Below are positions 3,610 to 14,784 of a stretch of 17,042 nucleotides of DNA, one piece after another (position 1 is the first letter of the stretch; each line of letters starts with the position of its first letter). A program made the translations under genes and the position numbers. The DNA is taken from IMG/VR virus record IMGVR_UViG_2617270978_000019; one strand, written 5' to 3'. The notes beneath the pieces are model-generated. The model searched no databases. It was not told the DNA's origin and saw nothing but the letters and a program-made list of their open reading frames with translations. The stretch comes from a virus. Its lineage: Duplodnaviria > Heunggongvirae > Uroviricota > Caudoviricetes.

Positions 3610-4155
3610 TCACCCATCTTGCTGCGGTGCTACTATTGAAAAGTACTCACACCCTTTAGCCCAAATAGTTTTGATAGTTGTCCAACTGACTGGAACCTTG
3701 ATTTCGATTCTTCCGCTGCCGTCACAAGTTTCGCAATCATCATCACCAAAGCATTCCGGGCAGCTTATAAACGTAGTTTCTGAAAATTCACCGGATAGCA
3801 CACCCTTAGCGCCGTTCTCAGCGGTTAGTTTCTTCGGCACTATAACCCAACCATCCGGAGTTACCGGAGAGTTGCCATTTATATCGAAGTTTGGCTCTGC
3901 GTCCTGAACCAGGAGGATGTAACCATTCTTGGCAGTATCAAGTTCTAACGCCTCGGTGACGGTACCGAAATAGCGATTACCTAAATCCGCATCACAAGTG
4001 CTTACATCAATGGAAACCTCCATGCCTTCGATTAATTCTGGCAAGTTGTAAGTTTGGCTTACAGGTTCTGCTCCCAGTGATGCCAGTGCAATTCGTGCCA
4101 GTTCCATTTGTTCGCCACGAGTAAGCCCGTTTTCAAGCGGATTTTTAATGAACAA
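3610..4155 (-). CDS. Hypothetical protein with C-terminal CxxC...CxxCxGxG zinc-ribbon (DnaJ-type finger-like)
   Basis: 181-aa ORF; motif CPECFGDDDCETCDGSG near C-terminus; operon context. Confidence 0.6.
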   Translation of the reverse strand: MFIKNPLENGLTRGEQMELARIALASLGAEPVSQTYNLPELIEGMEVSIDVSTCDADLGNRYFGTVTEALELDTAKNGYILLVQDAEPNFDINGNSPVTPDGWVIVPKKLTAENGAKGVLSGEFSETTFISCPECFGDDDCETCDGSGRIEIKVPVSWTTIKTIWAKGCEYFSIVAPQQDG

Positions 4156-4195
4156 TTCAATACGTTCTTTGGTAATAGTGGTTATTTGTTAGTCC

Positions 4196-4951
4196 TTAAA
4201 CTGCTAGTTGCAATTGCATTTCAAAGCGGTCGCGTTGTTCACAATACGCAAGAGAACCAGGGCTATTGTGTGCCTCAATCCGTTCTACCATTAATGCTGC
4301 GCGTGTCTCTTTACTTGCAGGTGCATAAGCCCCAGACCAGGCTTTATCAATACCGATGTTTCGAGCGACGTTCGTACTATCTGCGCTGGCTAAGGGTAAT
4401 TTTGTGAATATCAGCGGATTTAACATGCGCAATCCATGTAGTTTCGTAACCGGCTGACCATGCCCATCAACAATGTGACGAATCAGGTCTTTCATTCTGG
4501 CTACCGCAAGAGTTGGGCGCTTTACGTCATAGTCGCCACAACTACCTATAGCCACTCGCGGAAACTCATTGCACAAATGAATAAATCGCTCGTCACTTTC
4601 ATTCATGTGCCACACTGGAACGCCAGCTAGTTTTCCGTGAGGCCACTCATTCAGAAGCGCATCATTTTCCTCCTCTCCGCCATCAATAACATCCGGGATA
4701 ATGGCAAAATCGAATCCTGGGTGATTCTTCCAGCGAGCAACAAACTCGTAGTAATCGCTCCAGTCGATTTTGTTTTTGCCAGCTGCTTTCCAGGCGGTGA
4801 ATGCACCGTTGTCCAGCGCGAACGACTGACAGTATTCAGCCGCGAGATTGATCTGGCCTGAATGCGCAAAACTGATAAACGCATGTCGCCCTTTCCATGC
4901 TCTCATTGCGCACGTATCAGGAGTAATAGGCCCACCGTGGTAGTGAATCAT
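4196..4951 (-). CDS. TGT-fold (tRNA-guanine transglycosylase-like) protein lacking the C-terminal zinc subdomain; candidate DpdA-like DNA-guanine transglycosylase
   Basis: Start at ATG 4951 with AGGAGA Shine-Dalgarno and 1-nt spacing from upstream stop; segments resemble TGT motifs: LDNGAF (cf. TDSGGF), VAIGSCGD (cf. AVGGLAVGE), KLHGLRM (cf. YLMGVG), STNVARNIG (cf. PTRNARNG); no CxCxxC...H zinc site. Confidence 0.5.
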   Translation of the reverse strand: MIHYHGGPITPDTCAMRAWKGRHAFISFAHSGQINLAAEYCQSFALDNGAFTAWKAAGKNKIDWSDYYEFVARWKNHPGFDFAIIPDVIDGGEEENDALLNEWPHGKLAGVPVWHMNESDERFIHLCNEFPRVAIGSCGDYDVKRPTLAVARMKDLIRHIVDGHGQPVTKLHGLRMLNPLIFTKLPLASADSTNVARNIGIDKAWSGAYAPASKETRAALMVERIEAHNSPGSLAYCEQRDRFEMQLQLAV

Positions 4952-4952
4952 C

Positions 4953-5360
4953 TCACTCTCCTTTGATGCGAATGCCAGTAGCGCGGATTGCATCGATGAC
5001 TTCAGAAACTTTGTATGCCATTACCGTTTGGTAATCATCGTGAAAATCTGTTCGATGAAGCATGCTGCTACGTTCCGGGAGCAGTATTTCCCGCGCTTCC
5101 AGTTCTGCAATGCGCTTTTTTGCTGCTTCCAGTTCATCCAGTAATTCCAGCACGGTAGCCGGATTAGCCTTGGCAACAAAATCCCGGACTGGCTTACAAT
5201 CAATCTCCGCAATGGGTTGATACGATGTGTAGCCATGCTGTCTTGTATAACTACCGTGACGAATAACGAAAAAATCACCATTTATTTTTTTAGCCTGCCA
5301 CTTATCTTCACCGGCTTTCTCTGCCGCTTCACGCAGTGCCTGAGAGTTAATTTCGCTCAC
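4953..5360 (-). CDS. Ea22-like protein (short variant)
   Basis: N-terminus MSEINSQALREAAEKA and C-terminus GIRIKGE match my memory of lambda Ea22 termini; central region differs. Confidence 0.6.
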   Translation of the reverse strand: MSEINSQALREAAEKAGEDKWQAKKINGDFFVIRHGSYTRQHGYTSYQPIAEIDCKPVRDFVAKANPATVLELLDELEAAKKRIAELEAREILLPERSSMLHRTDFHDDYQTVMAYKVSEVIDAIRATGIRIKGE

Positions 5361-5578
5361 TTCGAACCTCTCTGTTTACTGATAAGCTCCAGATCCTCCT
5401 GGCAACTTGCACAAGTCCGACAACCCTGAACGACCAGGCGTCTTCGTTCATCTATGGGATCGCCACACTCACAACAATGAGTGGCGGATATAGTCTGGTA
5501 GTTCAGACGACGCATTTTTATTGCTGTATTGCGCTGTAATTCTTCAATTTCTGATGCTGAATCAATGATGTCCGCCAT
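5357..5578 (-). CDS. TraR/DksA-family C4 zinc-finger protein (lambda Orf73-type)
   Basis: 73-aa ORF with CCECGD...CRTCASC four-cysteine motif typical of TraR/DksA C4 fingers. Confidence 0.75.
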   Translation of the reverse strand: MADIIDSASEIEELQRNTAIKMRRLNYQTISATHCCECGDPIDERRRLVVQGCRTCASCQEDLELISKQRGSK

Positions 5579-5627: not shown

Positions 5628-5654
5628 AATAATAAAAAAGGAGCCTGTAGCTCC
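5628..5654 (-). terminator. Intrinsic terminator (minus strand) inside the leftward early operon
   Basis: Minus-strand hairpin agGGAGC-uacag-GCUCCuu followed by TTTTTTATTATT. Confidence 0.55.
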
Positions 5655-5676
5655 CTGATGATTTTGCTTTTCATGT

Positions 5677-10049: not shown

Positions 10050-10589
10050 ATGCAACCACTTACATACCAACAGACTAGCGGATTTAGCCCGACTGCGGTG
10101 ATAAATCGTTCTCAAACAAAACAGGTGCCAGGCCACGAAAAAATCCGTGATGCCGTCCGCGCCTGGTCGGCTGTAGATAATCAGGATGTCGTTGCCACAC
10201 TCATTGTGAATGAGTATCGGGAGCAGGGCGGCGGCACCATCGATTTCCCTGATGATGTCAGCCGTGCACGCCAGAAGCTGTTCCGCTTCCTCGATAACAA
10301 ATTCGATTCTGAAAAATACCGAAATAACGTGCGTGAACTGACCCCGGCAATTCTGGCGGTACTACCGCTGGAATATCGCGGTTACCTGGTTGAGCAGGAT
10401 AGCTTCATGGCTAGGTTGGCTGAAATGGAAAAGGAACTCAGTGAGGCAAAACAGGCTGTCATTCTCAACGCACCACGCCACCAGAAACTGAAGGAAATTA
10501 GTGAAGGTATTGTGTCGATGTTTCGTGTGGACCCAGATCTGGCTGGTCCATTGATGGCGATGGTTACTACCATGCTGGGGGCGATATGA
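10050..10589 (+). CDS. Regulatory protein in the cII position (YdaT/CP76-type CII-like, not lambda CII)
   Basis: 179-aa ORF with AAGGAG Shine-Dalgarno, located between cro-like and O; family assignment from memory only. Confidence 0.5.
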   Translation: MQPLTYQQTSGFSPTAVINRSQTKQVPGHEKIRDAVRAWSAVDNQDVVATLIVNEYREQGGGTIDFPDDVSRARQKLFRFLDNKFDSEKYRNNVRELTPAILAVLPLEYRGYLVEQDSFMARLAEMEKELSEAKQAVILNAPRHQKLKEISEGIVSMFRVDPDLAGPLMAMVTTMLGAI

Positions 10590-12602: not shown

Positions 12603-12619
12603 TGAAACAGGTGAGTTGA

Positions 12620-12654
12620 GTTCAAACTGTAGTACAATTCTCTCCAGTTTGAAC
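12620..12654. repeat. Perfect 10-bp inverted repeat GTTCAAACTG-n15-CAGTTTGAAC between ren and emrE
   Basis: Read directly; sits 18 bp after ren stop and 16 bp before emrE ATG; no T-run follows. Confidence 0.8.
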
Positions 12655-12669
12655 AGGAAAGAATATGCT

Positions 12670-13002
12670 ATGAATCCTTATATTTATCTTGGTGGTGCAA
12701 TACTTGCAGAGGTCATTGGTACAACCTTAATGAAGTTTTCAGAAGGTTTTACACGGTTATGGCCATCTGTTGGTACAATTATTTGTTATTGTGCATCATT
12801 CTGGTTATTAGCTCAGACGCTGGCTTATATTCCTACAGGGATTGCTTATGCTATCTGGTCAGGAGTCGGTATTGTCCTGATTAGCTTACTATCATGGGGA
12901 TTTTTCGGCCAACGGTTGGACCTGCCAGCCATTATAGGCATGATGTTGATTTGTGCCGGTGTGTTGGTTATTAATTTATTGTCACGAAGCACACCACATT
13001 AA
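12670..13002 (+). CDS. emrE: SMR-family multidrug efflux transporter EmrE
   Basis: 110-aa product MNPYIYLGGAILAEVIGTTLMKFSEGFTRLWPSVGT, four TM helices, matches E. coli EmrE. Confidence 0.95.
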   Translation: MNPYIYLGGAILAEVIGTTLMKFSEGFTRLWPSVGTIICYCASFWLLAQTLAYIPTGIAYAIWSGVGIVLISLLSWGFFGQRLDLPAIIGMMLICAGVLVINLLSRSTPH

Positions 13003-13257: not shown

Positions 13258-14784
13258 ATGAAAAAAGCCATAGCATATATGCGATTTTCATCACCAGGTC
13301 AGATGTCTGGTGATTCATTAAACCGCCAGAGAAGGCTTATTACTGAATGGCTAAAGGTAAATAGTGATTATTACCTTGATACCGTAACGTATGAAGATTT
13401 GGGGTTAAGCGCATTCAATGGAAAGCATGCACAATCAGGAGCTTTTTCGGAATTTTTAGATGCTATAGAACATGGTTATATATTGCCAGGGACTACATTG
13501 TTAGTTGAAAGTCTGGACAGACTTTCAAGAGAAAAAGTCGGTGAAGCGATTGAGCGTCTGAAATTGATTTTGAATCACGGTATTGATGTTATAACTCTTT
13601 GCGATAATACAGTCTATAATATTGACTCATTGAATGAGCCATATTCATTAATAAAAGCCATACTTATAGCACAAAGGGCAAATGAAGAAAGCGAGATAAA
13701 GTCAAGTCGGGTTAAATTATCATGGAAGAAAAAACGGCAGGATGCACTGGAGTCAGGCACGATTATGACGGCGTCTTGTCCGAGATGGCTCTCATTGGAT
13801 GACAAAAGAACGGCTTTTGTTCCAGACCCCGACAGGGTGAAAACTATTGAGCTAATTTTTAAACTCAGGATGGAAAGGCGCTCATTGAATGCAATAGCCA
13901 AGTATTTAAATGATCATGCTGTAAAGAATTTCTCAGGAAAAGAAAGTGCATGGGGACCTTCTGTAATTGAAAAATTATTAGCGAATAAAGCTCTGATAGG
14001 TATATGCGTACCTTCATATCGTGCAAGAGGTAAAGGAATAAGTGAAATCGCTGGCTATTATCCCAGAGTCATATCAGATGATTTGTTTTACGCTGTGCAG
14101 GAAATTCGGTTGGCACCTTTTGGTATTAGCAATAGTAGCAAAAATCCTATGTTGATAAATCTACTTCGAACAGTTATGAAGTGCGAGGCTTGTGGTAATA
14201 CCATGATTGTTCATGCGGTATCTGGAAGTTTGCATGGCTATTATGTTTGTCCGATGAGAAGACTGCATCGATGTGACAGGCCATCAATAAAGAGAGATTT
14301 GGTTGATTATAATATCATTAATGAGTTGCTTTTTAATTGTAGTAAAATCCAACCAGTTGAAAACAAGAAAGATGCTAATGAAACTTTAGAGTTGAAAATT
14401 ATTGAGCTCCAGATGAAAATTAATAATTTAATTGCTGCATTATCTGTTGCGCCTGAAGTTACCGCTATAGCAGAAAAAATCAGAGTATTAGATAAGGAAT
14501 TACGAAGGGCTTCTGTATCATTAAAAACTTTGAAGAGTAAAGCGGTGAGTTCACTTGGTGATTTTCATGCTATTGACTTAACCAGTAAAAATGGGCGAGA
14601 GCTATGTCGTACACTTGCCTATAAAACATTCGAAAAAATCATAATCAATACAGATAATAAAACCTGTGATATCTATTTTATGAATGGCATTGTTTTTAAA
14701 CACTATCCTTTAATGAAAACAATATCCGCCCAGCAGGCGATAAGTACTCTCAAATATATGGTTGATGGTGAGGTTTATTTTTGA
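13258..14784 (+). CDS. ybcK: Large serine recombinase (YbcK-type)
   Basis: 508-aa ORF; N-terminal resolvase domain with catalytic-serine context AYMRFSSPGQ, central recombinase domain, CEACGN...CPMRRLHRC zinc ribbon, C-terminal coiled coil; low GC. Confidence 0.9.
   Translation: MKKAIAYMRFSSPGQMSGDSLNRQRRLITEWLKVNSDYYLDTVTYEDLGLSAFNGKHAQSGAFSEFLDAIEHGYILPGTTLLVESLDRLSREKVGEAIERLKLILNHGIDVITLCDNTVYNIDSLNEPYSLIKAILIAQRANEESEIKSSRVKLSWKKKRQDALESGTIMTASCPRWLSLDDKRTAFVPDPDRVKTIELIFKLRMERRSLNAIAKYLNDHAVKNFSGKESAWGPSVIEKLLANKALIGICVPSYRARGKGISEIAGYYPRVISDDLFYAVQEIRLAPFGISNSSKNPMLINLLRTVMKCEACGNTMIVHAVSGSLHGYYVCPMRRLHRCDRPSIKRDLVDYNIINELLFNCSKIQPVENKKDANETLELKIIELQMKINNLIAALSVAPEVTAIAEKIRVLDKELRRASVSLKTLKSKAVSSLGDFHAIDLTSKNGRELCRTLAYKTFEKIIINTDNKTCDIYFMNGIVFKHYPLMKTISAQQAISTLKYMVDGEVYF

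Follow-up and report, generated by a model that had tools for sequence, protein, structure and literature searches.

A stand-alone, zinc-free relative of phage DpdA in the early region of a lambda-like Escherichia coli prophage

A lambda-like prophage of Escherichia coli carries in its early region a gene for a stand-alone, zinc-free protein of the tRNA-guanine transglycosylase (TGT) fold, which belongs to the phage branch of DpdA, the enzymes that insert 7-deazaguanine bases into DNA. The gene is located in a stretch of 17,042 nucleotides (IMG/VR record IMGVR_UViG_2617270978_000019, Caudoviricetes), called the window below. The prophage adjoins ybhC, at the attachment site of lambda. The assignment of the protein to the singleton DpdA group of this branch is solid. 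With regard to its function we consider it the best explanation, at a probability of roughly 60%, that the protein is a minimal enzyme that exchanges bases on DNA and leaves a low level of modification.

Gene, family and predicted fold

The open reading frame (ORF) runs on the minus strand from an ATG at 4951..4949 to a TAA at 4198..4196, and the protein begins MIHYHGGPITPD. The sequence GGAG is found directly upstream of this ATG, and the single base 4952 separates the ATG from the TGA of the preceding Ea22-like gene at 4955..4953. An alternative in-frame ATG at 4993, 14 codons upstream, would extend the protein to 265 residues; this start was rejected, as it overlaps the Ea22-like gene and PGAP and the homologues start at the ATG of the 251-residue form. 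The motifs LDNGAF, VAIGSCGD, KLHGLRM and STNVARNIG begin at residues 46, 133, 170 and 192, respectively. A CxCxxC motif is absent from the 251 residues, and none of the five cysteines of the protein (C14, C41, C127, C138 and C237) is conserved in the family. The original prediction, which was made from the letters of the DNA, had described a gene of this length with a start one nucleotide from the preceding stop, four TGT-like motifs and no zinc subdomain, and all of these points were borne out.

A HMMER search over 1.84 billion representatives of clusters at 50% identity revealed 1524 relatives at an expectation value (E) of at most 1e-3 and 204 at E <=1e-30, and 7855 clusters at 90% identity match the protein. 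Compared with relatives of 87-90% amino-acid identity, the gene has a nonsynonymous divergence (dN) of 0.07-0.10 with saturated synonymous divergence (dS), and the median dN/dS is 0.02 where dS is measurable. The DpdA-like gene is a real gene under strong purifying selection and not a chance ORF. Of 5426 complete E. coli genomes, 201 (about 3.7%) carry it, with five copies on plasmids, and its PGAP/RefSeq label in all 201 genomes is "hypothetical protein". Furthermore, tblastn located the gene in 108 phage records, which comprise lambdoid phages of Salmonella, Escherichia and Klebsiella as well as many Vibrio phages; the label in these records is either hypothetical or "queuine tRNA-ribosyltransferase".

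The assignment to the DpdA branch is based on the similarity to the DpdA of Escherichia phage CAjan, whose deletion abolishes 2'-deoxy-preQ0 (dPreQ0; preQ0, 7-cyano-7-deazaguanine) in CAjan DNA. BLASTP linked both proteins with an E of 3e-9 and 25% identity over 152 residues, and a comparison of the 70-sequence family profile with the profile of the CAjan family by hhalign gave a probability of 98.9% (E 1.2e-17, 171 columns). Closer relatives are gp54 of Salmonella phage SPN3UB (YP_007011024), which is 93% identical over all 251 residues, and gp032 of Salmonella phage 7-11 (36% identical, E 6e-33). In PHROGs the protein falls into phrog_887, "queuine tRNA-ribosyltransferase" (E 2.3e-103). A search against the TGT family PF01702, which had been suggested together with the original prediction, gave no match in Pfam at an E of up to 10, and it was the profile comparison with CAjan DpdA that placed the protein. 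NCBIfam and PADLOC, the latter including a DpdA model, gave no match either; Pfam and NCBIfam have no model for this family of more than 1500 clusters at 50% identity. Searches of PDB sequences with the single protein, a 29-sequence profile and the 70-sequence profile yielded chance matches only. The profile of the CAjan DpdA family also found nothing in PDB, which is due to the divergence among phage DpdAs and not to a fault of the gene under study.

Two TGT alignments, one of 14 enterobacterial sequences and one of 81 proteobacterial sequences from a genome scan, were compared with the DpdA-like family by hhalign and gave probabilities below 5%, which are not significant. The proven CAjan DpdA was equally not significant against these alignments, which are too shallow for their null result to count against membership in the superfamily. 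CAjan DpdA itself matches the PADLOC model of bacterial DpdA weakly (E 1.3e-3), with residues 147-209 on profile positions 200-259. If the numbering of the profile follows the structure 7UI4, these positions span G206/G207 and the nucleophile D256 of S. Montevideo DpdA.

A first AlphaFold model from a shallow alignment had a mean predicted local distance difference test (pLDDT) of 73, and Foldseek returned only generic TIM barrels for it. Rebuilt with AlphaFold2 from the 70-sequence alignment, the model reached a pLDDT of 93.7 and a predicted template modelling score (pTM) of 0.89, and it contains eight beta strands. All conserved residues are located at the C-terminal ends of the strands, which is where TIM barrels have their active sites, and QTRT2 stands at rank 10 among the fold results. 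The protein is predicted to form a (beta/alpha)8 barrel of the TGT type.

Conservation was assessed over 70 diverse family members, which are 32-55% identical to the DpdA-like protein. D47, A50, D87, H115 and H172 are invariant, and D191, G136, L174 and R175 are conserved in at least 90% of the members. In CAjan DpdA, Asp206 is the proposed nucleophile and Asp63 the second catalytic aspartate, and the base pocket consists of Ser64, Phe67, Asp105, His132, Gly153, Gly154 and Phe189 (Kot, 2020). The hhalign alignment pairs D206 of CAjan DpdA with D191 of the DpdA-like protein, D63 with D47, S64 with N48, F67 with F51, D105 with D90, H132 with H115, G153 with G136, G154 with S137 and F189 with L174. 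F51, H115, G136 and L174 are thus matches or conservative replacements, and N48 and S137 are changed positions. Judged by this alignment, both catalytic aspartates of phage DpdA are kept as D47 and D191. We take the invariant D87 as the likely functional counterpart of CAjan Asp105. Among the observations named originally as counter-evidence were a missing match to the TGT fold and a loss of the catalytic aspartates; what we found is the profile match to CAjan DpdA and the conservation of D47 and D191.

Supply of the 7-deazaguanine base

Searches of the window with hidden Markov models (HMMs) for homologues of QueC, QueD, QueE, FolE and YhhQ found none, in agreement with the original statement that queC, queD and queE are absent. 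Annotation of the neighbours by PGAP and Pfam gave only lambdoid early genes, with dpd models run on part of the window ORFs and DpdB and dpdC-K not specifically sought. Since que genes are missing from the window, the base has to be supplied by the FolE-QueD-QueE-QueC pathway of E. coli or taken up via YhhQ; E. coli K-12 has queC, queD and queE. The dpdA gene of phage 9g alone leads in E. coli to dPreQ0 in plasmid DNA at 0.03-0.3% of G, and CAjan mutants in folE and queC continue to use preQ0 from the host for incorporation, with the level reduced about 12-fold (Kot, 2020). By analogy, a dependence of the DpdA-like protein on host preQ0 seems plausible.

The neighbourhood of the gene was analyzed in two sets of loci, 80 viral contigs with proteins at least 87% identical to the DpdA-like protein (close relatives) and a sister subfamily of 80 loci on viral contigs (L172-L251) with 50-58% identity. 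No queC, queD, queE or folE was found near the gene in the close relatives. One contig of lambdoid size among them (IMGVR_UViG_3300013935_000001), which encodes a DpdA-like protein of about 90% identity, carries a YhhQ-family gene (PF02592; L152:7414-8004) with a 4-nt overlap at the start of the DpdA-like gene.

In the sister subfamily, 45 of the 80 loci have a gene for a YhhQ-type protein, QueD or QueC on the same strand, which abuts the DpdA-like gene or is at most 446 nt away. A YhhQ-type transporter is present in 35 loci, in all of them downstream, QueD in 10, and QueC in a single locus alongside the YhhQ-type gene. A Pfam check of ten sampled genes confirmed PF02592, PF01242 and PF06508, and examples of these modules are listed in Table 1. 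QueD also abuts the DpdA-like gene in Caulobacter phage DMCA. QueD catalyses the first committed step of the 7-deazaguanine pathway, and YhhQ is an importer of preQ0. The linkage of the sister subfamily to YhhQ, QueD and QueC is a strong argument that members of the family still work with a free 7-deazaguanine base. In the earlier survey of phages YhhQ was not correlated with any phage group (Hutinet et al., 2019).

Two proteins combine a DpdA-like domain with a second domain. P0253 (L168:2840-3847) consists of an N-terminal QueD domain (PF01242) and a C-terminal DpdA-like domain that lacks the first barrel strand, and due to this missing strand it is counted as supporting evidence only; the QueD HMM used here was built without this protein. 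In P0241 a truncated Dam-type N6-adenine DNA methyltransferase (PF02086) is fused to the DpdA-like domain. Both could be genuine fusions or deletion chimeras. Apparent fusions with a baseplate GPD domain and with DUF551 resemble chimeras or truncations in gene calling and were disregarded.

Known systems, proposed mechanism and alternatives

Hutinet et al. (2019, Supplementary Data 1) list the phages SPN3UB, HK106, SfI, SEN1, BTP1 and 7-11 with DpdA and without genes for the synthesis of preQ0 or archaeosine base (G+). This singleton or "third" group was the largest one with 76 of 182 viruses, and their network shows a separate cluster for the singleton DpdAs from phages of gamma-proteobacteria, apart from the DpdAs of heavily modified phages. 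The group was already catalogued in 2019, and the gene in the window adds a member that will not surprise a specialist. In the literature after this study we found no paper that tested a lambdoid singleton DpdA.

Like CAjan DpdA (DpdA1, Queuovirinae), the protein in the window is free of the CxCxxC zinc site, and it aligns with CAjan DpdA in the pair of catalytic aspartates and in most of the base pocket. Unlike the window protein, CAjan DpdA is 55 residues longer and is encoded in a cluster of 12 genes together with folE, queD, queE, queC and yhhQ, and about 32% of G is replaced in this phage. Bacterial DpdA from S. Montevideo (7UI4) comprises 413 residues in the structure, with a CxCx2Cx22H zinc site and large insertions; it needs the ATPase DpdB and is part of the dpd restriction-modification island (Gedara, 2023). 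The window protein has no CxCx2Cx22H and no match to the bacterial enzyme at the sequence level. The original prediction had regarded the zinc-free architecture as typical of phage and bacterial DpdA, which holds for phage DpdA1, such as that of CAjan, and also for Cap10, whereas bacterial DpdA keeps the zinc site. Tgt (PF01702; 375 aa; zinc ligands C302, C304, C307 and H333 in E. coli) differs from the protein of 251 residues by its length and by the presence of the zinc subdomain.

Cap10 of the type IV cyclic-oligonucleotide-based antiphage signalling system (CBASS; 9NTN) shows a remodelled TGT fold without zinc, in which an Asp and a His form the catalytic pair. It binds the cGAS/DncV-like nucleotidyltransferase (CD-NTase) at its N-terminus, which is modified with NDG, and works together with the QueC-like Cap9 in the CBASS operon. 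An enzyme of this kind in a phage could act on protein-linked 7-deazaguanine, for example as a counter to type IV CBASS or to QatABCD-type defences, which contain QueC/TGT-like proteins. Unlike cap10, the gene in the window has no CD-NTase or Cap9 gene beside it; its neighbours are Ea22-like, DksA-like, Eaa-like, exo, bet, xis and int, and PADLOC gave no match. We regard such a role as very improbable.

For the preferred reading, base exchange on DNA, we propose by analogy a double-displacement mechanism. D191 would attack C1' of the target deoxyguanosine, guanine would leave and a covalent enzyme-DNA intermediate would be formed, which D47 would resolve by deprotonation of N9 of the incoming 7-deazaguanine base. 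H115, D87 and the loop with G136 would read the base, and F51 and L174 would sandwich it. The incoming base may be preQ0 or a close derivative like 7-amido-7-deazaguanine (ADG) or 7-carboxy-7-deazaguanine (CDG), either host-made or imported. We infer from these comparisons that DNA is the substrate and that the result would be a low-level modification, probably at specific sequence motifs and not a bulk replacement. The original prediction went further and implied hypermodification of the DNA as protection against restriction. This is not supported by the singleton-DpdA phages described below, and bulk hypermodification and an anti-restriction effect of the gene are unproven.

Several points weigh against the preferred reading. 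The data for phages with a singleton DpdA are weak or negative: DNA of phage 7-11 contains 50 2'-deoxy-7-amido-7-deazaguanosines (dADG) per million nucleotides, which is about 0.02% of G, and the DNA of mycobacteriophage Orion had no modification. A functional divergence of the singleton clusters was left open by Hutinet et al. (2019). None of the sequence methods used here gave a direct link of the DpdA-like protein to 7UI4 or canonical TGT, and a gene for precursor supply is nearby in only one of the 80 loci of the close relatives. Bacterial DpdA needs the DpdB ATPase, and no partner gene is conserved beside the DpdA-like gene. In addition, Asp105 of CAjan DpdA aligns with D90, which is not conserved, and the invariant D87 is located three residues earlier, so that the register is uncertain here.

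The 7-11 protein gp032 (YP_004782407) resembles the window protein in being a singleton DpdA of the same family from a phage with an enterobacterial host; unlike the window prophage, 7-11 is large and virulent, and its modification is dADG and not dPreQ0. By our own arithmetic, the dADG content of 7-11 would correspond to a few sites per lambda-sized genome. This would fit a real transglycosylase that sets a few site-specific marks, with a role in packaging, replication or regulation, or that acts on an RNA substrate, for example host tRNA, and gives no bulk protection. The database label "queuine tRNA-ribosyltransferase" and the position of the singleton clusters in the network point in the same direction. 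However, neither the zinc subdomain nor the C-terminal regions with which TGT and archaeosine TGT (ArcTGT) hold tRNA are present in the protein, it has detectable homology to the DNA-acting DpdA1 and none detected to TGT, and its gene stands among replication and recombination genes, with one family member fused to a Dam-type methyltransferase. We consider this alternative unlikely.

The unmodified DNA of Orion, the near-trace level in 7-11 and the absence of que and yhhQ genes from the window and from 79 of the 80 close relatives would also suit a conserved gene that, as in Orion, leads to no 7-deazaguanine modification in E. coli, with the same fold in another role such as base excision or the binding of a deazapurine metabolite. 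However, the host of Orion has no preQ0 pathway and E. coli has one, the catalytic aspartates and the base pocket are retained under strong purifying selection, and over half of the loci in the sister subfamily have a linked gene for YhhQ, QueD or QueC, which points to a 7-deazaguanine base as substrate. We consider this possibility improbable to a similar degree.

It is conceivable, at rather long odds, that the singleton DpdA-like enzymes of temperate phages in general do not modify DNA in bulk against restriction but place few site-specific marks with preQ0 scavenged from the host or the environment, or use a substrate other than DNA (tRNA or a protein-linked deazaguanine as for Cap10), and thereby serve regulation or counter-defence in an as yet undescribed way. 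If the marking is true, the pair of a YhhQ-type importer and a DpdA-like gene would be a self-contained unit for salvage and marking.

Prophage setting and implications

The gene order in the window is int, xis, Eaa-like, DpdA-like, Ea22-like, DksA/TraR-like, DUF1382, exo, bet, gam, S24-type repressor, O and P, which places the DpdA-like gene in the exo-xis region. A search for sigma-70-like promoters on the minus strand gave none from about 5640 to 4196, and the simplest reading is therefore that the gene belongs to the early transcript from pL. A terminator-like hairpin with a T-run at 5638-5656 (minus strand) directly precedes the DksA-like, Ea22-like and DpdA-like genes. For a transcript from pL to extend to the DpdA-like gene, antitermination would be required. 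Due to its position in the early leftward run, the protein is most likely made in lytic growth, while the phage DNA replicates.

The close relatives are single-gene cassettes at varying sites, either in the nin region (SPN3UB) or beside xis (HK106 and the window). The SPN3UB gene for gp54 also stands as a cassette of one gene in the early region of a lambdoid phage; unlike the gene in the window, located between exo and xis, it follows the replication genes in the nin region. An Ea22-like gene is found upstream in 37 of 74 close relatives, so that this pairing is not obligatory. The idea of a conserved partner gene was rejected altogether, as the neighbours differ among SPN3UB, HK106, Vibrio phage D453 and the window. 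Coordinates of the features are given in Table 1.

Table 1. Features of the DpdA-like gene and its surroundings (window coordinates, except for the last line, which refers to viral contigs of the sister subfamily)
Feature	Position	Strand	Remarks
DpdA-like gene	4196..4951	-	251 aa; zinc-free protein with predicted (beta/alpha)8 TGT fold; singleton DpdA-like
Codon of D47 (LDNGAF)	4811..4813	-	Predicted general acid/base; invariant; aligns with CAjan Asp63; corresponds to D95 of bacterial DpdA (with F99, D-x-x-x-F pattern)
Codon of D87 (IPDVI)	4691..4693	-	Probable base-recognition Asp; invariant; loop after strand beta4
Codon of H115 (PVWH)	4607..4609	-	Predicted base-pocket His; invariant; aligns with CAjan His132; likely counterpart of His181 of bacterial DpdA
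Codons of G136-S137 (AIGSCG)	4541..4546	-	Loop after strand beta6; aligns with CAjan Gly153-Gly154 of the preQ0 pocket
Codon of D191 (SADSTN)	4379..4381	-	Predicted catalytic nucleophile; at least 90% conserved; aligns with CAjan Asp206
Stop-start junction Ea22-like/DpdA-like (TGA-n-ATG)	4949..4955	-	Read from the sequence
Ea22-like gene	4953..5360	-	PF13935 (E 2.6e-17); upstream of the DpdA-like gene in the same transcription unit
DksA/TraR zinc-finger gene	5357..5578	-	PF01258; heads the small gene run
Modules of the sister subfamily (examples)	L175:3184-3705; L208:6977-7462; L172:1854-2273; L232:1675-2199		

Some further observations concern other genes of the prophage. The Eaa-like ORF downstream of the DpdA-like gene (3610-4185) has an ATA at 4183-4185 (minus strand), whereas 30 related loci have an ATG start there (MTTITKERIELF...), and an internal TTG at 4155 is the only start left. 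Its C-terminal half, which is different from that of the relatives, has a DnaJ-like CxxCxGxxxCxxCxGxG zinc-finger motif, and in an E. coli prophage with 99% identity PGAP annotates the gene as a partial pseudogene. Downstream of O and P, we found a gene for an EmrE-like small multidrug resistance (SMR) protein at 12616-13002 (plus strand) and a gene for a large serine recombinase of 508 aa with Resolvase, Recombinase and Zn-ribbon domains at 13258-14784 (plus strand); these two genes in the late-early region may be an inserted element. A YdaT-family protein (PF06254) of the Rac-prophage type is encoded at 10050-10589 (plus strand) after cro, at the position of cII in lambda, and the immunity region is therefore a mosaic of lambda-like and Rac-like phages.

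The linkage found in the sister subfamily is systematic context evidence for a continued use of 7-deazaguanine bases by the singleton branch, and a lambda-like prophage of E. coli is a very tractable setting for work on the function of singleton DpdAs, as the phage is inducible, host mutants in que genes and yhhQ exist and mass spectrometry of nucleosides is established. A correct label would change how the prophages in about 200 complete E. coli genomes are read. Furthermore, even a low level of 7-deazaguanine in the DNA of temperate phages would matter for the evasion of restriction and also for the sensitivity to recently described defences that sense 7-deazaguanine, like the restriction system GrwAB of Vibrio cholerae and the DNA glycosylase Dag1.

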